Below, piece by piece: positions 51,392-61,950 of a DNA stretch of 61,950 bases. The translations under genes and the position numbers were made by a program. The notes beneath the pieces are model-generated. The model was given only the letters and a program-made list of their open reading frames with translations. It was not told where the DNA came from and searched no databases. The stretch comes from Candidatus Pelearchaeum maunauluense. Its GTDB lineage: Archaea > Thermoproteota > Nitrososphaeria_A > Caldarchaeales > Caldarchaeaceae. Positions within the stretch are counted from its first letter, which is position 1. The number at the start of each line of letters is the position of its first letter. The stretch lies in the NCBI GenBank assembly GCA_030059675.1, contig JANVYQ010000008.1, forward strand, positions 1 through 61,950, written 5' to 3'.

Positions 51392-51601
51392 GTGGTTAGG
51401 GATAGGCAACTATACGTAGCCGCGTTTAAGGAGCTCATAGACGAAGTCATCAGAGAGAACAGGAACGATCCTCAGAAAGCAAAAGAGCTAATAATCAACG
51501 AAGTACTTAGAGAAGCAAAGAAAGCGTTCAAGCCAGAGGAATATGAGGTTATTAAGCAGTACACATTAAGTAGGTTAAGGGAGTTAGGTTATGGATATTA
51601 A
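51392..51601 (+). CDS. Small helical hypothetical protein
   Basis: 69-aa charged ORF preceded by GGTGA, overlapping the next gene. Confidence 0.55.
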   Translation: MVRDRQLYVAAFKELIDEVIRENRNDPQKAKELIINEVLREAKKAFKPEEYEVIKQYTLSRLRELGYGY

Positions 51602-52561
51602 CGTTTTGTTGGTTAATAGTACTTTCGGTAGGCTTGTAAGTGGTAGTGGGCAACATGTATACATGCTCTGGAAGCACCTTAAAGATAAAGTGAATTTCGA
51701 GGTATGGAATGTTGAGAATATCGGTTACATAAACATCCCCAAGCTTAAGAGCATAACCTTCTACCTAAGAGCTAAGAGTAAGGAAATCCCTAAAGACATT
51801 GACATAATCCACATCCATAACCCAAAGTTTGCAGGGCTCTTCAGGAAGGGTAAAAAGAACATTCTTACAATTCATGGAGAGTATGGGGGGAACTAGAGTT
51901 ACAGTATGGTTTCCTAGCAAAACCAATTATCAAGTATATCGACAGAAACGTGAAGAGAGCTGATGTAATAACGACAGTCTCTCCTCACTGGTCTAGACTT
52001 TATGGTTGGAAGTGGATCCCCAACATGGTAGAGCTATCGGAAATCCGCGGCGTTAAGCCAGCCGATGAGAGTTACCTGCTGTTTGTTGGGAGGGATGACC
52101 TAGTAAAGGATTACCCGTTGTTTAGAAGAATAGCGAGAGAAGCTTATGAAAAACTCGGGATTAAGTCACTAGCTTTAGGCGTGGTAAGGGGTGACACGGA
52201 GTTTCTGAAGCACGCGAAGGTGGCTTGGGAACATGTAATAAGCTTCATGAAGTCAGCCCACGTATTGGTCATAACTTCAAGGTATGAAGGGTTCCCAACC
52301 ACCTTGCTAGAGGCGTGGGCTTCTGGATGACCTGTTGTGGCAAGGGAGATCCCGCCACTAGCTGAGCTCCAGAAGCTCTACCCAGGCTCAATGCTCCTAT
52401 TCGACGGCACCGTAGAGTCTGCATTGTCGAGGATACGCTCTCTACCCCACGAGGATGTTAGGAGGCGTGTTGTAGAGAGCGGACTACAGGTAGTAAAGAA
52501 CTTTGATGCTCCTATAGTGGCAGAGAAGTATTATAGACTCTACAAAGAGGTGATAAGCTAA
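51591..52561 (+). pseudogene. GT4 glycosyltransferase, disrupted
   Basis: DIIHIH, LTIHG, IPNMV, LFVGR..K, SRYEGFPTTLLEAWASG; frameshift at G-run near 51885 and in-frame TGA at 52328-52330. Confidence 0.85.
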
Positions 52562-52893
52562 TGATACTTGATGTGGGTAGTGGGCACAACCCTAGGGGAG
52601 ACGTAAACGTAGACCTATACAGAGATTGGACACCACATACATTTGGCAAGAAAGTAGTGAGGAAGAATCTGGTGCAAGCCGACGCTCACATGCTTCCTTT
52701 TAGGGATTCGTGTTTTGATGTGGTTCTATCTTTCCACCTGTTGGAGCACTTAGATAATCCCATACAAGAGTTGCGAGAGTTCGAGAGGGTAAGCAGACAT
52801 AGAGTAATAGTAGCTGTTCCACACCCCATTCACGAAATAATTGTAAGACTATTTGGCAAGCCAAATCCTAAACATAAATGTTTTTTCTCCTAG
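52561..52893 (+). CDS. Class I SAM-dependent methyltransferase (type 11), possibly C-terminally truncated
   Basis: ILDVGSG, ADAHMLPFRDSCFD, HLLEHL..P. Confidence 0.8.
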   Translation: MILDVGSGHNPRGDVNVDLYRDWTPHTFGKKVVRKNLVQADAHMLPFRDSCFDVVLSFHLLEHLDNPIQELREFERVSRHRVIVAVPHPIHEIIVRLFGKPNPKHKCFFS

Positions 52894-53007
52894 CTTTTTT
52901 AAGAAGAGGGGTTATAGTGTGCGGTTTAGAAAATATAGGATTTCCCTTTTTAGGGGTAGACTGAAGATTCCCTACCCTATCTGGATAATAGCTGATAAGG
53001 TGATAGC

Positions 53008-53295
53008 ATGAGGCTGTTAATTTTGGGTCTTGACGGGTTAGAATATAAGCTGGTTGAAAGATGGAACCTCGAAGTTTTCAAGCAAAAAGTCTACGGCAAG
53101 CATGACGTGTCGTTTTTCAGGAACATATTTACTTCGATAGTTTGGGCTAGCTTCTTACTGGGAGAGAATGCGGAAAAACTTGGATTCACGGTTGAAAGTC
53201 TTAGGGATAGACATGTACCACAGAAAGTCAGACCCTTGTGGAAACTACGGAGAAGGCTCATAAAAAGGAGTCTAGGCAGTTTCAAGCCCTTATAG
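53008..53295 (+). pseudogene. N-terminal fragment of an alkaline phosphatase/phosphodiesterase-superfamily protein
   Basis: LILGLDGL..TSIVWASFLLG; ends just before repeat copy 3. Confidence 0.6.
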
Positions 53296-53309
53296 GTAAT
53301 TCTATAATG

Positions 53310-53389
53310 GATGAACCCATGAGGAGCCCCGAGGCTGATGAATCCCAAGACCTACGCATGCCCATGAAAGACTACGCAGGTCAGAACCC
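53310..53389 (+). repeat. Dispersed repeat copy 3 (inverted relative to copies 1 and 2)
   Basis: Reverse complement of 10108-10187 with one mismatch. Confidence 0.85.
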
Positions 53390-53554
53390 GCACTTCTCAG
53401 GGTCGACCATCCTCTCCATCGTTCTCCTCTTCTTGTTTCTTGCTGCTCTCCTTAGCGGTGTCCCGCACTGCGGGCATCTTAGGGATTCTGTCTTCAGGTA
53501 CTCACAGCAGTGTGAGCAGTACCTGTATCCCTGGCTGTATGAGCTTCCTCCCAA
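53381..53554 (-). CDS. Small Zn-finger protein, 57 aa (not in ORF track)
   Basis: TTG start; GGSSYSQGYRYCSHCCEYLKTESLRCPQCGTPLRRAARNKKRR..; CxxC/CPxCG. Confidence 0.65.
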   Translation of the reverse strand: MGGSSYSQGYRYCSHCCEYLKTESLRCPQCGTPLRRAARNKKRRTMERMVDPEKCGF

Positions 53555-53612
53555 GCCCGCCTATCTCCACGCCTTTAACGCAGGTATATGAGCGTAGCGC
53601 CCGCCGCGCGTG

Positions 53613-54074
53613 CTAGCCAATCCTCGCGTATATATTCTTGGCGCGCTCCATTATCTGCTGCCTCTTCTCCTCGCGCGTGTCCATTATCCTGACCAGCCTG
53701 ATCGCGGCTGGGCATCTCCTCACCGTGTCAACCTGCTCTATGCCAGCCGCCATGAACGCGGCCTCCGCCCTGCTCGGCGAGACAGGTATCTCCAGCCTAC
53801 CGACAGTCTCGCCATCCCTATACCATATCTCCAGTCTGCACCTCCCCGCGCTTCCACGCTCCTGCATCTCCCCCAGCGAGTAGCCTGGGATAGCCGGCGC
53901 GTTGAACACGGCACCGTAGATATCCTCACGCCTAACATCCCTGCCCCTAACCCTCACCTCGAACACCAGCACCGTGTGATGCCCGTTCTTCCTAGCTATC
54001 CGCGGCATCGCCGCGTTAGCATGTGCGGAGCCTAGTATAAGCTCTAGGGGCCTCCCAAGCGTATATCCACGCAC
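53613..54074 (-). CDS. Hypothetical protein at the trailer end of CRISPR array 1
   Basis: 153-aa GC-rich ORF with no recognisable motif. Confidence 0.4.
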   Translation of the reverse strand: MRGYTLGRPLELILGSAHANAAMPRIARKNGHHTVLVFEVRVRGRDVRREDIYGAVFNAPAIPGYSLGEMQERGSAGRCRLEIWYRDGETVGRLEIPVSPSRAEAAFMAAGIEQVDTVRRCPAAIRLVRIMDTREEKRQQIMERAKNIYARIG

Positions 54075-54386
54075 CCCAATAATCTTTCAATTCCTTTTTG
54101 GATTTCTGATGCTCTGATATTATATGCTGGATGACCTCGTCTATTAGCGTCTTTCAATTCCTTTTTGGATTTCTGTTATTTTTATATTTTATACACGAGG
54201 TCCCAGTATCAGCTAAGACAACTCCACTAACAGCTAAAGTCCCGCCAATTCCACTATTCGCCAAGTGCAATGGAGCCATTTCTAAGCACATTTTATATCC
54301 CTCCTTGTTGAGCGGGTGTCAAATCTTCACTCCTTTTTGCTTTAAAAAATAAGGAGGGTTGAGCCATGTAGTAATGTGTCAAATCT

Positions 54387-54485
54387 TCACCCCTTTTCGC
54401 TGATGGATGTCACGCAGCATCCACAGCCGCACCAGCACGCATCCTCTTTCTTCTCTTTCTCAGCCCTTACTTTCTCTATCGGCAT
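54387..54485 (-). CDS. 32-aa Cys-rich, metallothionein-like peptide inside a giant spacer
   Basis: MPIEKVRAEKEKKEDACWCGCGCCVTSISEKG; GGTGA SD 5 nt upstream; divergent from hxlR. Confidence 0.65.
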   Translation of the reverse strand: MPIEKVRAEKEKKEDACWCGCGCCVTSISEKG

Positions 54486-54513
54486 GGCTGTCACCTGCGT
54501 AAATTATTTACAT

Positions 54514-54545
54514 TTGAAAGTATTTATACTTTCAAGAGGAAAGTA
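54514..54545. promoter_or_regulatory. Overlapping inverted repeats in the divergent promoter; candidate HxlR operator
   Basis: TTGAAAGTAT-TT-ATACTTTCAA and TACTTTC-AAGAG-GAAAGTA. Confidence 0.55.
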
Positions 54546-54575
54546 AAGAAAGTCACTTTACGGGGGGATAGTGAG

Positions 54576-54956
54576 ATGGAAAATAACATGCCATTCAAAT
54601 GCTCAATGGTGAAGAAACCCGGTGACCTTTGCCCATGCAGTCTGGAAGGCGTGATGAGCATTATTGGAAAGAAGTGGTCGATTCTCATAATTGGTACGTT
54701 AGGCAATCACAGGAGGCTAAGATACAACGAATTGCAGGAGAAATTGGGAAAGATCAGTCCTAAAACACTTACCGCAAGACTGAAGGAATTGGAGAGTATA
54801 GGGTTAGTAGGCAGACAAAGCTTTAACGAAATTCCTCCAAGGGTTGAGTATTTCTTGACTGAAGAGGGAGAAAAGTTGTTTAATTCGTTGCTCCCTCTTA
54901 TAAGATGGGCGATCGAAAGAGATCATAGATCTTTCAATTTCTTTTTGGATTTCTGA
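54576..54956 (+). CDS. HxlR/DUF24 (MarR-type) transcriptional regulator; C-terminus encoded by a CRISPR repeat
   Basis: CPC..IGKKWSILII..LRYNELQ..ISPKTLTARLKELE..PPRVEYFLTEEG; terminal SFNFFLDF comes from repeat 54931-54955. Confidence 0.92.
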   Translation: MENNMPFKCSMVKKPGDLCPCSLEGVMSIIGKKWSILIIGTLGNHRRLRYNELQEKLGKISPKTLTARLKELESIGLVGRQSFNEIPPRVEYFLTEEGEKLFNSLLPLIRWAIERDHRSFNFFLDF

Positions 54957-55073
54957 GACCCCATGTTTAGTTAAGAATGAAATGTTGTGTGAAATCTTTC
55001 AATTCCTTTTTGGATTTCTGGTACCATTAGGGGTATTGGCTTCATTTCACCACCTCCTTCTTAAAGAAAAAAA

Positions 55074-55211
55074 TTAGGGGGCTGGGACTGTTGCCTCGGC
55101 TCCCCATCCCCCCTCATACCAGCTGCCCCCGCATTCGGGGCAGATTTTCTCGCCGTATGGGCCTTCACGGGGTTTCACCCTCTGGCCGCAGTAGGGGCAT
55201 GGTTCCTTCAT
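55074..55211 (-). CDS. 45-aa Zn-ribbon protein inside the 204-bp giant spacer
   Basis: MKEPCPYCGQRVKPREGPYGEKICPECGGSWYEGGWGAEATVPAP; GGAGGGTG SD; T-tract after the stop. Confidence 0.7.
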   Translation of the reverse strand: MKEPCPYCGQRVKPREGPYGEKICPECGGSWYEGGWGAEATVPAP

Positions 55212-55524
55212 ATCTGCACCCTCCCTTTCAATTCCTTTTTGGATTTCTGCTAAACAAATAATTAACTTTCAACAACAACACGTTCACTTTCAATTCCTTT
55301 TTGGATTTCTGCTCAACCTCGTACACCACGCCCTCAAAAACAGTAATATTCTTTCAATTCCTTTTTGGATTTCTGTCACGTAGAATCTGTATATGCTGGC
55401 GAATGTGTTGATGTTCTTTCAATTCCTTTTTGGATTTCTGGAAGAGCATAGGCCGCGGGTAATACTAAGCGAGCCAGAAGTAAGCTTTCAATTCCTTTTT
55501 GGATTTCTGAGACGTCAGGTGGAG

Positions 55525-55599
55525 GGGGGCCTGAACACCAAGACATTTATTAGCTTATGGCTGGAGCTCCCATGCGCTATATCTTACGGCGCCTGCAAG
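55525..55599. repeat. Copy of the distal leader segment of array 2
   Basis: Matches 61661-61734 with one indel and one substitution. Confidence 0.9.
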
Positions 55600-55686
55600 T
55601 TAGCGACTTGAGCGCGTACGTGTATTTCCCAATAGTTGCCTGGCCGTTCTTCTCTAGACGCTCCACCAGCTGGGCTGGCGCCTGAT

Positions 55687-55839
55687 CTAGGAAGCACCAC
55701 TCGCCTGATCCTGATGGATAGGGCCTCCAGCTAACTCTGTCAAGCATAGCCTCGAGAGCATCCGCAGGTTCCTAAGCTCGCGTTCCAGCTCAGCTATCCT
55801 ATCGTCGACATACCTCAGGACATCCTCGTTTTCAGCCAT
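55687..55839 (-). CDS. Short coiled-coil ORF (50 aa), possibly truncated
   Basis: MAENEDVLRYVDDRIAELERELRNLRML.. Confidence 0.4.
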   Translation of the reverse strand: MAENEDVLRYVDDRIAELERELRNLRMLSRLCLTELAGGPIHQDQASGAS

Positions 55840-55880
55840 GCCGCATTACCCTGCACCTGCTACGGGCTCATATTAATGGG

Positions 55881-56177
55881 CTATGGCCTAAACGCCTCTC
55901 CTGTCCTGATGTTCCTCATCTCTATCCTTCCCCGCTTTTCGGCCAGAGCCACTACCGGCTCTGCGCCGGCCTTCTCCGCCAGCTCGAGAAGAGGCTCCAC
56001 CTCGCTGTACCTCACGTAGGCCCTGCTGTACTTGCACTCCACTAGGACGCTTCTACCCGCCTTCATGCATACGAGGTCTACTGGCTTGCTCCTCGCGCTT
56101 CTCACGACGACCCATCCCCTCTTCAGGAAAAGGTCTCTTACAATATACTCTAGGCGCCTGCCCTTCCTGTAGCTCAT
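55881..56177 (-). CDS. Holliday-junction-resolvase (Hjc)-like PD-(D/E)xK nuclease
   Basis: YRKGRRLE..GWVVVRSARSKPVDLV..LVECK. Confidence 0.85.
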   Translation of the reverse strand: MSYRKGRRLEYIVRDLFLKRGWVVVRSARSKPVDLVCMKAGRSVLVECKYSRAYVRYSEVEPLLELAEKAGAEPVVALAEKRGRIEMRNIRTGEAFRP

Positions 56178-56222
56178 CCATAGCTATTCACGCCGGGCTT
56201 GGATATAAGCAGGTGCGGCCTG

Positions 56223-58556
56223 CTAGCCGATGACTCCAACAACGTCGTGGACGAGCATGTTTGTCGAGCCTGACTCGTCGCGGAATATGCTGGCTCTCAC
56301 CCTGAGGACCCTGCCCTTCTTGATATAGTCGCGCGGGCCTGAGTACATTCCCGAGTCAAGCCTTGCTCTGAACCTGTCGTTTACTATCACTATCGCGTAG
56401 CCCGGTAGTATCTTCTCGACCTCTATGGTGTATATGTCTCCCTGCGCCTTCTTCGAGCTGCTTCTGACCGCTGCCTTGCTCATTATCCTGTTGCCGCTCC
56501 TTGTTATCGCCTCCTTCTTCTCTAGGTACTTCACCGCCTCCGCCACAACGTCGGGCTGGTACTCCTCGAGCTGCTCCAGCAGCTCGGCCTCGCTCACGCC
56601 CCTCGTGGAGCTCTTGAGGATGATCGTGTAAGCATCCTTGGCGCAGTGGTAAACATCCCTGAAGCTCGGGCCTGGCTTCCTGGCTTTCTGCCGGGGGCTC
56701 TCCACGGCGCGCGGCTCCTCAATCTCAATCACCTCCTCGCGCTGCGGCTCCTCCACCCGTATCGTCTCCCCAGCCGGGACGGCCTGTACCTCTATCTCAT
56801 GCTCCTCCGCGCGCCAGGGCCATGGCTCGCCTGCCGCGGGCTTTGGGCCGCGCCTCTCTAGCTTGATGCCCTCAAGCCTCTTGGCTACCTGCGTAAGGAC
56901 GCGCGTCATCTTCCTAGCCCGCTTGTAGCCCTCGCTGAAGTAGTACTCGTCCACCGTGCCCTGGGTGAGCAGTATCGTCACCTTTCCGGGTAGCCGCCTG
57001 CCCGTTCTCCCCCTTCTCTGTATGTATCTTATCCCCGATACCGCTGGCTCGTAGAATATGACGTATCCGCACTCCGGTATGTCCAGCCCCTCCTCGCCGA
57101 TGGCTGTTGCTGCGAGGATGTTGAACTCGCCCCTCCTAAACCTGTTCAGCGTGTTTATCTGCTCCTGCTGGCTCATCCTGGGGCCTGTCTTGCCCTCCGC
57201 CTTTCCGATGAACAGCTCAGCTCTGAGGCCCTTCTCGCGCAGCCTCTCGACGAGTATCTCCGCGGTGTGCCTGATGTTGGCGAACACCATTATCCTGTCT
57301 TCTGGCTTCTCCCTGAGGTGCTGGTCTATCAACGCGGCGATCACCTCCATCTTTGGGTGGTCTACCGCGCACCTCTCAGCCATCTCCACTAGCCTCGTGA
57401 AGTCAGGCGACCTGGCCAGCATCCTGTGGCTCTTGAGCTCGGACTTCTCCACCTCCCTAAGGTATTGGCGGAGGGAGTACACGTGCTGGCTCTCTACCAG
57501 CTCGAGCGCGTGGTATATGCTTAGTATTGTTGAGCATAGCGCCATGTAGTGCAGGTTCTCTCCCCTGACGCCCGAGTCTATCTCCGCTCTAAGCCTGGCC
57601 ATGAGCTGGACTATCACCTTCCTGTTGATGTTCTCTAGGGGCATCCTCAGCAAGCCGAGGCGCTGTAGCTCCTTCGCGCGCTCCTCTATCATCGCCTTGA
57701 CGTGCCTGCGTATGGACTCGTATTCTTCTGGGAGGCTTACCCTAACCCACTTCACCTGCACGCCCGGTATGTGCTCCGCAACCTCCTCGTCCTCCTCGGT
57801 CTTCCACGCTATCTCCTCTATCAGGAGGTTGCGGCATACCTCCATTACCTTGTCCTCCTCGCTTCCGGGGGATGCTGTGAGGGCGAGGATAAGCGGCCAC
57901 GGGCATCTCCTCGAATACTCTCCCGCGAGCCTGGTGTAGGCGTGTCTGTTCCTGCTTCTGTGGCACTCGTCGAAGACGAGCAGGGCAAACTCCTCAAGCG
58001 GCACGTATCCCCTGGCTAGGTCGTTCCAAACAGCCTGGGGCGTTGCGAAGAAAACCCTAACCCTGCTGTCCCTCCACTGCGATGGCCTCCTAGACGAGTC
58101 GCCTGTGATGACTGCTGTCTCCTCGCGCTCCAGCCTGAGGTGCTTGACGAAGCTCTCCCTATGCTGCGCCACGAGCGGCTTGGTCGGAGCCATCATCAAT
58201 ATCCTGCAGCCCGGGTAGCGGTGCAGCAGCTCGGCCGCGACCAGCTCTGCTATGACGGTCTTCCCAAGCGCGGTGGGCAGGACGACGAGGGTGTTCCTCT
58301 CGAGGCAGCGCTCGACAATATCCCGCTGGTAGCGCCTCTCCTCTATCGTCTCCGGCCTCACGAACGGGTGCTCAACAAAGCGTGCCCAGGCCTCCAGCCC
58401 CTGCTCCACCTTCACCTTCCTTATGTGCTTGCATTCTCCAGACCTGAACGTGAATGCGGGGCAGGTGCACCACCAGAGCCCCGCGTGGTCCAGCGTAACC
58501 GTGTATGTCTTGTGGGGCTCCGACTCGCTCTCGACCGGCCACTGCCTAACGCTCAT
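56223..58556 (-). CDS. Hef/FANCM(Mph1)-like SF2 helicase with N-terminal SWIM Zn finger and wHTH/OB-like C-terminus; no ERCC4 nuclease domain
   Basis: WWCTCPAF..CKH; LPTALGKT; APTKPL; FDECH; LTASPG; IGEEGLDIP; IQRRGRTGR. Confidence 0.9.
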   Translation of the reverse strand: MSVRQWPVESESEPHKTYTVTLDHAGLWWCTCPAFTFRSGECKHIRKVKVEQGLEAWARFVEHPFVRPETIEERRYQRDIVERCLERNTLVVLPTALGKTVIAELVAAELLHRYPGCRILMMAPTKPLVAQHRESFVKHLRLEREETAVITGDSSRRPSQWRDSRVRVFFATPQAVWNDLARGYVPLEEFALLVFDECHRSRNRHAYTRLAGEYSRRCPWPLILALTASPGSEEDKVMEVCRNLLIEEIAWKTEEDEEVAEHIPGVQVKWVRVSLPEEYESIRRHVKAMIEERAKELQRLGLLRMPLENINRKVIVQLMARLRAEIDSGVRGENLHYMALCSTILSIYHALELVESQHVYSLRQYLREVEKSELKSHRMLARSPDFTRLVEMAERCAVDHPKMEVIAALIDQHLREKPEDRIMVFANIRHTAEILVERLREKGLRAELFIGKAEGKTGPRMSQQEQINTLNRFRRGEFNILAATAIGEEGLDIPECGYVIFYEPAVSGIRYIQRRGRTGRRLPGKVTILLTQGTVDEYYFSEGYKRARKMTRVLTQVAKRLEGIKLERRGPKPAAGEPWPWRAEEHEIEVQAVPAGETIRVEEPQREEVIEIEEPRAVESPRQKARKPGPSFRDVYHCAKDAYTIILKSSTRGVSEAELLEQLEEYQPDVVAEAVKYLEKKEAITRSGNRIMSKAAVRSSSKKAQGDIYTIEVEKILPGYAIVIVNDRFRARLDSGMYSGPRDYIKKGRVLRVRASIFRDESGSTNMLVHDVVGVIG

Positions 58557-58885
58557 ATCTCCAGCGGCTCCTCTCCCTCCCCGCGCTCTCCCCTCGGATT
58601 AACCTGCTCAATAGTTTTCATGAGCTGCTCCAGCTTTGCGTCGTTGATGATAGCCCTGTAGTCGTTGAGATCATCCAGAGAGCGTAGTATTAGGCCGCGC
58701 CTCTTCTTCGTTTGGCCAGAGGAGTCCACCGGGTTGAGCTCCACAGCTATCTCCGCCGGGCGCGAGCCCTTCCTAGGGATTTTCAGGAGGAATACGCCGC
58801 TGAGAGAGGTCTTTCTACGCTCCCAATCCTTTCCAGACTCGAGGAAGCTCCTCAGCTTCTCGGCCAGGCTCAACCTCTTCAGCAC
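58553..58885 (-). CDS. Archaeal hypothetical protein, translationally coupled to the helicase
   Basis: KDWERRKTSLSGVFLLKIP..ELNPVD..KRRGL; stop overlaps the helicase start (ATGA). Confidence 0.8.
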   Translation of the reverse strand: MLKRLSLAEKLRSFLESGKDWERRKTSLSGVFLLKIPRKGSRPAEIAVELNPVDSSGQTKKRRGLILRSLDDLNDYRAIINDAKLEQLMKTIEQVNPRGERGEGEEPLEI

Positions 58886-58930
58886 CTACCACAGTAAAAG
58901 CGGCCCCAAGGATATATCCGTTCACGGCCT

Positions 58931-59308
58931 TTAGGCGATTAGCCTGCGCCTGCGCGCAGCATCCTCTCCAACGGCCATCCGAAGCATTCGGCGGAAAAGC
59001 TCTAGGACTCCCTCAACATCCACCTCGCTTGGCTTCTTCCTCATCTCCGCCAGCGCCAGCGCATCCTCTATCAAGCCAAGCGAATCCCTGAAGTATGCGA
59101 CGATTATCTTCGCCCGTGCCGTGGCGTGCCAGGGGTCTGAGACGCCGCGCCTAGCCTCCTCCAGAAGCCTCCTAAGCTCTTCCGCCAAAACAAGCCTACT
59201 AGAGCTGCCGACATATTCTCTAGCAGCTATCCTCGGGAGGAGGAAGAGCGCGGCTGAGGCAACTCCCTTTAGCTCGGCCAGCCCGCGCGCCTTCTCCGAC
59301 TCCAGCAA
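58931..59308 (-). CDS. Hypothetical helical protein
   Basis: 125-aa ORF; TATA-like TTATAT about 30 nt upstream. Confidence 0.5.
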   Translation of the reverse strand: MLESEKARGLAELKGVASAALFLLPRIAAREYVGSSSRLVLAEELRRLLEEARRGVSDPWHATARAKIIVAYFRDSLGLIEDALALAEMRKKPSEVDVEGVLELFRRMLRMAVGEDAARRRRLIA

Positions 59309-59470
59309 ACCCTCAACAGGAGATAGCGGCCCATATACGATATAAGCGTTCTAGGCTCTGTGTTAGCTTGTGGTTTGCTCTGCGGGCCGGCGCCCTCAAG
59401 GCTTATATATGCTCCGCATTTTTTGGAGGGGATGGGGTGTTTTGTCGTCTTCTCCTGTTCTGAGGCTTGG

Positions 59471-61519
59471 CTTTCAATTCCTTTTTGGATTTCTGAATGG
59501 AGTATGGAATCGCGGGGTAGTGAAGTGGTACTGGTTGCCAGAATCAAGAAAAACACGACCCACTAACTTCAAGTGGTTTTTGTTTGTCTTATGCGTTTAT
59601 ATAATTCCTGTTGAATTAGAGGTAGTCTAAAACTAGTTAGGCGGACATCATGTTGCATTCCGTCCTCATCCGTAAATGAGATAACTAGAACCTGCTTTCT
59701 ATTCTTCCTAGAGTAACCGATCAGTGCCCCTACCAGTAGGCCGGCTAAGACACCCAATGCGCCTATAAACAACACAAACAAAATCCCCAATAGAATAGCG
59801 CCGACTAACGCGTAGCCTACAATCTTCCAACCAGATGTCTCCTCCTCAACAACGTTCTGCATCATTATTATCTTATTGTATGGAATTCTAAACCTCCCAC
59901 CCCCCTCTATTTCCACATCCACATAATCATTTTGAAAGAAAAGCGATACTTGGTTAGGAAGCGGATAACCAACATGTCCCCCCAAATACTGGATATTAGA
60001 GTACCTAATGGGCTCCAATACCATAAACGTAAGAGAAACCTTCTTGTTTATATTTTTTACTAAGTCATTTTTACTATCGTTATTTCCTAGTTAGCGTTTG
60101 CCACACTTTCAATTCCTTTTTAGATTTCTGAGACACATTACTAAGGTCTTTGCTAGGCGTGTTAAATGAAACTTTCAATTCCTTTTTGGATTTCTGAGAT
60201 TCAGGGTGGGAGGGTCGTCATACTTGAGACCGAGAGCTCTTTCAATTCCTTTTTGGATTTCTGAACCCCGGCGTTGAGCGCTTCGCGGTCTTCACGAACC
60301 AGTATGGTACTTTCAATTCCTTTTTGGATTTCTGTGGTTGATAAGACCGCTCCCGTTCTCTACAGCCCGATACCTTTCAATTCCTTTTTGGATTTCTGGA
60401 CTTGGAAAACACCATGCTATGGCTTGAGGACATGGTGAGCTTTCAATTCCTTTTTGGATTTCTGTAGGATATTGGGCTGGGCTGGCAGTAGATGATTGTC
60501 TCCTTTCAATTCCTTTTTGGATTTCTGAAAGGAAAAGAGGGTTTAATCCGAATAATACTCTCTAACCAACTTTCAATTCCTTTTTGGATTTCTGAGATAT
60601 GGCAGACGCCGAAACAGGGCGTCTGCCCAGCCGACTTTCAATTCCTTTTTGGATTTCTGGAGGCACGACAAAACCTCAAGCGGTTCCTAACAAAACTGAC
60701 AAACTTTCAATTCCTTTTTGGATTTCTGAGACGTCAAAGAGCTGAGCGTAGAAGAACACGGAGAACAATCTTTCAATTCCTTTTTGGATTTCTGTTCGAA
60801 CGGTTGTCAGGTGTGAGCTCGTGAACAAAGAGCTTGCTTTCAATTCCTTTTTGGATTTCTGGGAATCCATATATAACACGATGGAAAAACTAGCAAACGT
60901 GCTTTCAATTCCTTTTTGGATTTCTGGTGGCTTAACAAAAGGCGGCCGGCCTACGCAGCCGCCATACAATACCTTTCAATTCCTTTTTGGATTTCTGCCG
61001 GTGTGATTGGGATAACTGGACTATCGTCGGCACGATCTTTCAATTCCTTTTTGGATTTCTGACACGGCTGTACGACGACGAGCCAACAAGATGTCTTATA
61101 TCTTTCAATTCCTTTTTGGATTTCTGTCTCTTTTTCATTTTTTCTTTTTCTAGGCTTTCTAGGCTCCTTTCAATTCCTTTTTGGATTTCTGAGGGTGAGA
61201 GTAGAAGCAGGGTTGGACATCCAGCACCTTTCCCCTTTCAATTCCTTTTTGGATTTCTGAACTCCTTGAAATCCCATTCAGCGGCGGCGGCACTGACATC
61301 TTTCAATTCCTTTTTGGATTTCTGCTATGTTTTGAGGGAGTTCGTTGAGGACGGAGAAGAGAGCTTTCAATTCCTTTTTGGATTTCTGGGCGCTTCCTGA
61401 GGAGAGGTATTTTGAGAACAGCTTATTCGCCTTTCAATTCCTTTTTGGATTTCTGCCAAATTTCTTGGGAGGTCGATGGGGTCGCTATGAGAATCTTTCA
61501 ATTCCTTTTTGGATTTCTG
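59471..61519 (-). CRISPR. CRISPR array 2: 23 repeats, 21 normal spacers (38-46 bp) and one 610-bp gene-carrying spacer at the trailer end
   Basis: Same 25-bp repeat at 59471, 60106 (1 mismatch), 60172 ... 61495; AT-rich leader follows 61519. Confidence 0.97.
59569..60024 (-). CDS. 151-aa membrane protein (YLGGH motif, PH-like beta domain with Gly-rich TM hairpin) inside a giant spacer
   Basis: Intact AT-rich ORF; A-rich BRE plus TATAAA at about 60047-60058, 23-28 nt upstream of the ATG. Confidence 0.8.
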   Translation of the reverse strand: MVLEPIRYSNIQYLGGHVGYPLPNQVSLFFQNDYVDVEIEGGGRFRIPYNKIIMMQNVVEEETSGWKIVGYALVGAILLGILFVLFIGALGVLAGLLVGALIGYSRKNRKQVLVISFTDEDGMQHDVRLTSFRLPLIQQELYKRIRQTKTT

Positions 61520-61734
61520 TGAAGCTATTTATTTTGGTTTGTTGGTTGTATTTTAGTTTTTCTTTTTGTTGGTTCGTCAATTGGCGAATGTTGTTGTTTT
61601 CTTGGGATTTTTTCGGGAGTCGCTGTTCAGCACCCCTGCTGCGGCCCAGTTCTTTATATAGGGGGCCTGAACACCAAGACATTTTTAGCTTATGGCTGGA
61701 GCTCCCATGCGCTATATCTTACAGCGCCTGCAAG
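61520..61734 (-). promoter_or_regulatory. CRISPR leader of array 2
   Basis: Non-coding, AT-rich, TATATAAA on the minus strand near 61652-61660; distal part conserved beside array 1. Confidence 0.8.
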
Positions 61735-61823
61735 GCGTCCTATATATTGGCTAAAGGCCACCGTAGTTTTCTCAAGTACCTTACTAGCCCTCGGGTCTGC
61801 GTCCTATATATTGGCTAAAGGCC
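61735..61823. repeat. Perfect 25-bp direct repeat flanking a 39-bp unique insert
   Basis: GCGTCCTATATATTGGCTAAAGGCC at 61735-61759 and 61799-61823. Confidence 0.9.
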
Positions 61824-61950
61824 CATCGCATACACGTATGCCTCAACGCTCTTCCATGAGGTCTTGGTTAAGTCACGCATATTTACCTCAAGTTCATTTT
61901 GGCGTGAATATCTGAGACCACATCTCGTATGGTATTGTATATTCTATTTG

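Follow-up and report, generated by a model that had tools for sequence, protein, structure and literature searches.

A 755-bp segment carrying an HxlR-family regulator gene fused in frame to a CRISPR repeat in an archaeal array

Within a CRISPR array, spacer length is normally constant within a few bases. The present work concerns a departure from this rule in Candidatus Pelearchaeum maunauluense: a 755-bp segment that stands between two repeats of an array on contig JANVYQ010000008.1 and carries a gene for a regulator of the HxlR/DUF24 family together with a divergent gene for a small cysteine-rich peptide. The window analysed is this entire contig (61,950 bp, here contig C8), which belongs to a 94%-complete genome of 1.79 Mb in 21 contigs with a mean guanine-plus-cytosine (GC) fraction of 0.504. 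The closest described case is CRISPR locus F of S. solfataricus, in which an 899-bp fragment of a pNOB8-like plasmid lies between two repeats (Garrett et al. 2015, PMC4390879, citing Lillestol et al. 2009). In the passages of that article devoted to array structure, such irregularities are described as very few in the Sulfolobales, the size of the 899-bp fragment is said to fit a whole number of repeat-spacer units, and a structural change of the array is proposed to accompany Cas1-mediated cleavage and repair at spacer insertion (PMC4390879). For bacterial arrays, the corresponding passages of Kupczok et al. (2015, PMC4524480) give spacers of at least 100 nt as rare and mostly transposons, each data set (140-1,315 unique spacers) containing 0-6 of them. 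A literature search on giant, oversized or abnormally long spacers by name found nothing.

Set beside locus F as outlined in PMC4390879, the locus described here is likewise a crenarchaeal-type array with a sub-kilobase foreign fragment between two repeats. It differs in that there are four such segments in one genome, in that the donor is not demonstrably a plasmid, and in that an almost complete regulator with its promoter has become fused in frame to the repeat. The whole-unit periodicity given in the same source does not hold for it: in units of 65.96 bp, the four segments of 755, 204, 610 and 435 bp correspond to 11.8, 3.5, 9.6 and 7.0 units, respectively. Compared with the bacterial long spacers as presented in PMC4524480, there is no transposase, no terminal inverted repeat and no half-spacer, and the frequency (4/31) is far higher. 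An insertion sequence or a miniature inverted-repeat transposable element was considered as a candidate for the 755-bp segment and rejected, as no open reading frame (ORF) for a transposase is present, terminal inverted-repeat matches stay at the random level (6-10/30), residual half-spacers are lacking and the coding sequence of hxlR reaches the last base before the repeat.

The 755-bp segment and the arrays that contain it

The 25-nt repeat (CTTTCAATTCCTTTTTGGATTTCTG) forms two arrays on contig C8. The nine repeats of array 1 start at 54084, 54151, 54931, 54996, 55225, 55287, 55351, 55416 and 55485, and array 2 spans 59471 to 61519. Mapping of the repeat over the whole genome gave 35 copies and 31 intervals between neighbouring repeats, 27 of which measure 37-46 bp, whereas four are oversize (204-755 bp). 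The largest of these, at 54176-54930, falls far outside the range of the 27 normal spacers and is enclosed by two full repeats in register, the left one (54151-54175) exact and the right one (54931-54955) with one change. It contains the stub of a third gene, the gene of the Cys-rich peptide, a divergent promoter region and an hxlR gene that lacks only a short, non-conserved tail (Table 1). The ends take no account of genes: hxlR is cut after residue 118 and the third gene after 38 codons, and this truncation marks the segment as an arbitrary piece of DNA rather than a tidy module. No relative of the third gene was found in the fetched loci or in the Atlas. Degenerate repeats were not detected inside the long segments, the best match in the 755 bp (14/25) being the same as in shuffled sequences.

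The segment is low in GC (0.42 vs the genome mean of 0.504; 5.3rd percentile among 7,094 genome windows) and occurs once in the genome. Three other HxlR-family genes of the host are 34-36% identical to the captured one; the top non-self matches in 41 relatives have 49-53% identity, and in 401 sampled genomes of the host phylum the subfamily occurs in 52, with a best identity of 50-53%, which means that hxlR did not derive from the sampled kin of the host. A collection of 5.8 billion proteins contained one closer relative, 71% identical (P0002, a metagenome of the Joint Genome Institute), followed by proteins at 64% or less, one of them labelled as a metagenome-assembled genome of Euryarchaeota. 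A single-protein scan of genome contigs gave relatives at 46% or less, plus one 20-residue chance match, and a metagenome scan for the donor failed to bring up the contig that encodes the 71% relative. Judged by its low GC, its uniqueness in the genome and the distance of its relatives in the host phylum, the segment is foreign DNA.

A conserved leader-like element (GGGGGCCTGAACACCAAGACATTT...) stands to the right of both arrays and, on contig C2, also adjoins a repeat that stands alone. Read as its reverse complement, the 25-nt repeat ends in ATTGAAAG, which we take to be the 8-nt tag of CRISPR RNAs (crRNAs) in type I-A and III-B systems, and one-base variant repeats are placed near the left ends of the arrays. 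From these three features, we read the leaders as lying on the right and the left ends as the old trailer, so that crRNAs would have the sense of the minus strand; hxlR, on the plus strand, is antisense to this inferred direction. The end of contig C13 carries a type I-A-like interference cassette with DevR/Csa2 (Cas7; 2.6e-78), a Cas3-like helicase, an HD protein just under the cut-offs (HD 2.8e-4, 21.6 bits vs 22; Cas3_HD 5.4e-3, 17.2 vs 23.1) and Cas6, that is, the split Cas3, Cas7/Csa2 and Cas6 expected of type I-A interference; by position alone, Cas5, Cas8 and Csa5 are presumably encoded there too. The normal spacers gave only chance matches of 12-20 nt to the oversize segments and to the rest of the genome, with no self-targeting.

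The three further oversize segments (204, 610 and 435 bp) are also unique in the genome. The 204-bp segment of array 1 holds a 45-aa zinc-ribbon-like ORF (CPYCG...CPECG; 55074-55211, minus strand, the inferred crRNA direction), which Pfam Zn_ribbon models match below cut-off only. The 610-bp segment of array 2 holds a complete 151-aa ORF for a membrane protein (59569-60024, minus strand), for which there is no Pfam family and the homolog search recovered only itself; a structure search of the Atlas gave a lead to PH_gly_zipper (PF27000, glycine-zipper PH-domain proteins, mostly viral). The 435-bp segment, on contig C2 and with no adjoining canonical leader, is a 145-aa frame open from repeat to repeat, with neither a start nor a stop of its own, and looks like an internal piece of a gene; it has no Pfam match and its homolog search, too, recovered only itself. 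The remaining lead for the ORFs of these segments is a weak match to phrog_17658. Given four oversize intervals and the published 899-bp precedent, the 755-bp segment is not unique.

The regulator, its promoter region and the divergent peptide

A preliminary description of this DNA had recognized an HxlR/DUF24 regulator with N-terminal Cys residues (C..CPC), a divergent 32-aa peptide with CWCGCGCC in the same 755-bp spacer and palindromes between the two genes; it had also read the hxlR frame through the following repeat and supposed that repeat-coded residues had replaced the native tail. The flanking repeats and both ORFs were verified, and each of these points is upheld by the evidence given below.

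The regulator matches the Pfam family HxlR (PF01638; 8.9e-24, 83.6 bits vs a cut-off of 20.8), residues 29-113 covering profile positions 1-84 of 91. Native coding ends with the codon AGA (54927-54929), after which T54930 and the repeat provide eight codons (SFNFFLDF); the stop TGA (54954-54956) joins the TG of the repeat to the A that opens the following spacer. Alignment of the protein with 28 homologs shows an ungapped conserved core from residue 9 to His117, past which the homologs have tails of 0-26 aa (median 7.5) that are not conserved; since these tails are short and variable, hxlR has lost at most a few dispensable residues. None of the 28 ends in SFNFFLDF-like residues, and the best relative ends in RDHRSPSAR. 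The AlphaFold model (AF2, 13-row alignment; mean predicted local distance difference test score of 85) has helices at residues 20-30, 33-45, 50-57, 62-74 and 96-118 and a wing at 78-94, that is, a full winged-helix fold that includes the long C-terminal helix ending at residue 118, disorder being confined to the repeat-coded tail. The gene product is thus complete in its predicted fold up to residue 118.

The top Foldseek matches are QsrR, HxlR, YodB and HypR, with template modeling (TM) scores of 0.65-0.89 and E values of 3e-9 to 2e-8 for QsrR, HxlR and YodB. The captured protein has in common with YodB, QsrR, HypR and HxlR (PDB 5hs7, 4hqe, 4a5m/4a5n and 7bze) the Pfam family, the fold (31-39% identity), an N-terminal Cys at the aligned position and a palindromic candidate site in its own promoter region. 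It contains Cys9, Cys19 and Cys21 (C..CPC), of which Cys19 is invariant in 29/29 aligned sequences, whereas Cys21 is aligned with the N-terminal Cys of the solved members 7kd3 and 7bze; the latter position is presumably that of the sensing Cys in YodB and QsrR. Cys9 and Cys19 (CPC) are additional with respect to the four solved proteins, and the C-terminus differs in having repeat-coded residues in place of the native ones.

Four palindromes are found in the 90 bp that separate the two start codons, the most extensive being a perfect 10+2+10 element with a TTTATA centre (Table 1). Its 10-bp arm was matched in 0/5000 dinucleotide shuffles of the 90-bp intergenic region, and the palindromes therefore exceed chance. 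The promoter regions of the window and of the relatives' loci L082, L095, L088 and L073 can be aligned; 31 columns are invariant, and a core AGTATTTAWAC is shared some 54 nt ahead of the ATG. Each of them has a palindrome at the equivalent place in which both arms have changed, TACTTTC/GAAAGTA in the window and TTTAAACT/AGTTTAAA in L082 and L095, a pattern that looks like that of co-evolving pairs of regulator and operator. The predicted operator half-site of the window, ACTTTCAA / TTGAAAGT (54514-54535), was also seen to agree in 7 nt with the start of the CRISPR repeat (CTTTCAA); 0.08-0.26 such matches are expected per 755 bp, and the likeness may be due to chance.

The peptide gene has an alternative GTG start at 54494, which would give a 35-aa form. 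The peptide contains CWCGCGCC, and the strict motif C.CGCGC is found in 1 of the 44,463 short stop-to-stop frames of the 1.79-Mb genome, namely in this peptide. No Pfam family at or above cut-off was found for it or for five similarly placed peptides of the relatives. On the minus strand, a T6 tract lies 3' of the gene. Two 26-nt direct repeats accompany it, each reading AAAGG(A/G)GTGAAGATTTGACAC on the minus strand, the upstream copy overlapping the stop codon of the peptide; on that strand each includes a Shine-Dalgarno-like GG(A/G)GTGA followed by AGATTTGACAC, and a TTG-started ORF of 29 aa (54382..54293) begins within the first copy. They were not found in the other fetched loci.

Relatives of the regulator were examined in two sets of loci. 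The metagenome search returned 33, from which L096 and L097 were dropped as weak 45-residue matches, leaving 31 (L065-L095), and the phylum gave 29, of which 25 were inspected for small ORFs after removal of four partial or contig-edge matches. A CopD gene lies near hxlR in 13/31 metagenome loci (PF05425, 3.8e-13 in the example tested), and a YHS-domain gene together with a DsbD-like membrane gene in 2/31. Directly upstream of hxlR, L065, L082, L088 and L095 (L082 and L095 being near-identical) have a divergent small ORF with a CxCGCGC/CGCGCC run, an ORF type seen only once elsewhere in those loci, and L073 has a similarly placed peptide, MCGEC...CC. Among the phylum loci, L103, L109 and L110 encode divergent peptides of 52-55 aa whose N-terminal head is CCC(G)/His-rich and whose tail, as in L088, is a coiled coil, which brings the divergent Cys-rich peptides to 5/31 metagenome loci and 3/25 phylum loci (8/56). 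In L111, a CxCCC peptide is encoded between hxlR and merA. In 7/29 phylum loci, hxlR has as its neighbour a class-I pyridine-nucleotide disulfide oxidoreductase, whose best NCBIfam match is MerA (TIGR02053; 3.4e-134, 448 bits vs a cut-off of 454, for a protein truncated at the edge of its locus). In the same-genus genome G001, the HxlR homolog is 52-53% identical and stands in a different context, with a divergent DsbD_TM gene beside it.

The occurrence of relatives next to CopD, MerA-like, YHS and DsbD-type genes and Cys-rich peptides makes a thiol-based sensor of metal (Cu or Hg) or redox state the likely role of this HxlR, as suggested by its family and gene context. The preliminary description had regarded the module as captured and as metal- or redox-responsive. 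The first view agrees with a GC of 0.42, with uniqueness in the genome and with a 71% metagenome relative against 53% or less in 401 phylum genomes; the second fits these neighbourhoods. The archaeal subfamily is linked to CopD, MerA-like, YHS and Cys-rich peptide genes, unlike YodB, QsrR, HypR and HxlR, which belong with quinone or aldehyde detoxification. With its CPC motif and its links to these genes and to CGCGC/CCC peptides, this undescribed subfamily is a candidate metal sensor. Literature on HxlR with merA or copper yielded no link between the HxlR family and archaeal metal resistance, which is a weak negative. In five loci of the host family (L060, L061, L062, L111 and L115), an HxlR of about 50% identity precedes a 28-34-aa MC.CCC/CC peptide ORF and the gene of a MerA-like reductase, an arrangement that is a candidate for an archaeal mercury operon with an HxlR-type regulator.

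Origin of the segment

Exact junctions together with ends that ignore genes lead either to integration of an untrimmed fragment or to break repair or recombination at the repeats. We think it fairly probable that a random foreign piece of about 0.75 kb was inserted between repeats by mistake, when a spacer was being added or repeats recombined, rather than as a designed module, and that its regulator was a thiol-type sensor in the original host. DNA of this size from another organism or a mobile element would have entered exactly between two repeats near the trailer end, either because the spacer-insertion machinery integrated a long fragment without trimming it or through breakage and recombination at the repeats. 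The repeat would have supplied hxlR with eight filler residues and, together with the A of the next spacer, with a stop codon. In its original host, the regulator would use the cluster of Cys9, Cys19 and Cys21 to sense a thiol-reactive metal (Cu or Hg) or an oxidant, and would bind the palindromes and repress the divergent promoter for itself and for the peptide, the latter acting as a metallothionein-like buffer of metal or thiols.

Several points weigh against this account. A search of the 94%-complete assembly for Cas1 (PF01867) and Cas4 (PF01930) found neither, and the adaptation machinery is thus undocumented here. No donor was found, the PAM (protospacer adjacent motif) and native surroundings of the fragment are out of reach, and either integration or recombination may have been the route. 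The junctions are known from the assembly alone, and the order of the array may be mis-assembled. An intact frame of 126 codons, an intact promoter and Shine-Dalgarno-like sites could equally fit selection for function. The ligand is a proposal drawn from gene neighbourhood. As to the peptide, a phmmer search with the 35-aa form against 1.84 billion representatives gave a single match, inside a 1588-aa protein and probably spurious. Its Cys cluster is C-terminal, whereas it is N-terminal in 6/8 similarly placed peptides (in L065 the cluster runs from residue 14 to the end, and in L073 Cys residues are at both ends), and the window peptide and its counterparts may be analogous rather than homologous.

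If the repeats served as an integron-like capture site, the HxlR/peptide module and the small genes of the 204- and 610-bp segments would be functional cargo, expressed and selected. The intactness of hxlR, promoter region and peptide gene, with their Shine-Dalgarno-like sites, would agree with this, as would the presence of a complete ORF in 3/4 oversize segments, two of these ORFs being in the inferred crRNA direction and thus drivable by a leader promoter; moreover, four oversize intervals among 31 are many for accidents. Fragment ends that ignore gene borders, as in the 38-codon stub and in the 435-bp segment with neither start nor stop, speak against cargo of this kind, the ORFs of the 204-, 610- and 435-bp segments have no detectable relatives or families, and the repeat was not found in 40 relatives, so that no conservation is demonstrable. 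Overall, we consider such a capture system rather unlikely. That the hxlR/peptide module retains a function in the present host, for which the preliminary description held it to be still sufficiently intact, we regard as possible, if doubtful. A broader proposal, that adaptation machinery or repeat-directed repair in this lineage installs DNA of 0.2-0.8 kb with some frequency and that the arrays form a landing pad for working foreign genes, seems improbable to us.

The assembly itself might be at fault, the order of units or the placement of the 755 bp being a chimera at 25-nt repeats, with the repeat-755-repeat unit residing on another replicon of a sample that was a population or a metagenome. 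The draft has 21 contigs, several of which end at CRISPR or leader sequence, and the composition of the insert is unlike that of the host. Both junctions, however, need a full repeat, so that the joints of repeat with hxlR and of stub with repeat must exist somewhere in the sample DNA; the arrays lie inside a 62-kb contig, where unique host genes flank them and also separate one from the other, and four separate oversize units would each require an error of this sort. An artefact is accordingly held to be distinctly unlikely. Still less probable is that hxlR and its neighbours have always been at this site and that the repeats at 54084 and 54151 and those from 54931 onward are independent arrays seeded around them. 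One-base variant repeats, which are typical of array ends, do stand on the leader side of both largest segments (755 and 610 bp), and a solitary repeat exists elsewhere (C2:68545); but on either side the point at which a gene is cut coincides exactly with the edge of a repeat, the mini-array at 54084-54175 has no leader-like sequence on its right, the composition is foreign, the closest relatives are outside the kin of the host, and the homolog of G001 is both distant and differently placed.

Finally, a mobile-element cassette of an Aca-like helix-turn-helix (HTH) regulator and an anti-CRISPR-like peptide, lodged in the array that it once opposed, is barely credible, because the relatives occur in cellular metal-homeostasis contexts, the genes are divergent rather than in one operon, and the repeat and the regulator subfamily each had 0 matches in 2.9 million viral contigs, even though a small ORF beside an HTH regulator resembles acr-aca pairs and HxlR-like proteins occur in phage families (phrog_11195 at 1.2e-26).

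Surrounding features and biological meaning

The coordinates of the features are collected in Table 1.

Table 1. Features of the array 1 region, of array 2 and of contig C2, with positions on contig C8 unless another contig is named
Feature	Position	Strand	Details
Left-flanking ORF of array 1	53613-54074
Trailer-side end of array 1	54084..54175	-	Repeat 54084-54108, 42-nt spacer, repeat 54151-54175; exact copies
Oversize inter-repeat segment	54176..54930	.	755 bp, GC 0.42
5' stub of third gene	54178..54291	-	38 native codons, MCLEMAPLHLANSG...; after AAGGAGGG plus 7 nt; cut by repeat 54151-54175
Two 26-nt direct repeats	54316-54341, 54376-54401	.	92% alike, 60 nt apart
Cys-rich peptide gene	54387..54485	-	32 aa, MPIEKVRAEKEKKEDACWCGCGCCVTSISEKG + stop; ATG 54485, stop 54389-54387; GGTGA 5 nt before ATG
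Divergent promoter/operator region (putative operator)	54486..54575	.	90 bp between peptide and hxlR start codons
Palindrome	54499-54511		6+1+6
Palindrome	54514-54535		Perfect 10+2+10, TTTATA centre
Palindrome	54527-54545		7+5+7
Palindrome	54543-54561		6+7+6
hxlR-family regulator gene	54576..54956	+	126 codons; residues 1-118 native, 119-126 repeat-coded
Variant repeat, leader side of 755-bp insert	54931..54955	-	One change, C10T on plus strand
Second oversize segment of array 1	55021..55224	.	204 bp, GC 0.56
Leader-proximal repeat of array 1 and conserved leader-like element	55485..55599	-	Further copies of the element: one at 61661-61734, two on contig C2
Trailer end of array 2	59471..60130	.	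Perfect repeat, 610-bp segment 59496-60105 (GC 0.41), variant repeat 60106-60130 (G17A)
435-bp oversize segment	C2:370509-370993 (L099 2510-2994)		Enclosed by two perfect repeats, GC 0.575

The leader element begins 16 nt past the last repeat in array 1 (55510-55525) and 141 nt past it in array 2, where the intervening sequence is T-rich (61520-61660); the leaders of array 1 and of the solitary repeat on contig C2 may be truncated. The latter repeat (C2:68545) is part of a copy of the array-1 leader junction (C2:68430-68569), that is, of an empty array, and an HxlR paralog is found 1.5 kb from it. Another leader-like copy (C2:371265-371327) runs off the end of contig C2. On the plus strand, AGA opens 5/27 normal spacers (54956, 60131, 60197, 60595 and 60729), where about 0.4 would be expected. 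The same three bases begin the leader of array 1, which has AGACGTCA in common with the spacer at 60729; these starts may be due to slippage where leader and repeat meet, or the effective repeat may be longer.

Between the arrays, the minus strand of 55881-58556 encodes a 98-aa Hjc/Mrr-like nuclease ORF and a 777-aa protein with SWIM and DEAD/ResIII helicase domains, which may be a defence or repair pair and, according to Pfam, are not cas genes. The low-GC stretch 51591-53295, to the left of array 1, contains short pieces of genes for glycosyltransferases (GT4, GT1) and methyltransferases and resembles a region in which foreign genes have decayed. No Rfam family reached its gathering score in 53000-61950.

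The arrangement is a new example of a rare irregularity of CRISPR arrays that had already been recorded, and what sets it apart is its multiplicity and the fusion of a nearly intact regulator to a repeat. Oversize intervals of this kind show what the insertion machinery, or repair at repeats, does when the length ruler fails, and four gene-sized intervals among 31, all with exact junctions, offer a natural test case for the entry of long DNA by Cas1-type integration and for the expression of such cargo. If the arrays did prove to be a landing pad for working genes, CRISPR would have an integron-like side function, and the gene entering here would be a metal-sensing HxlR accompanied by a Cys-rich peptide. 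For the family, the subfamily described in this work provides a candidate metal sensor with a ready-made putative operator.

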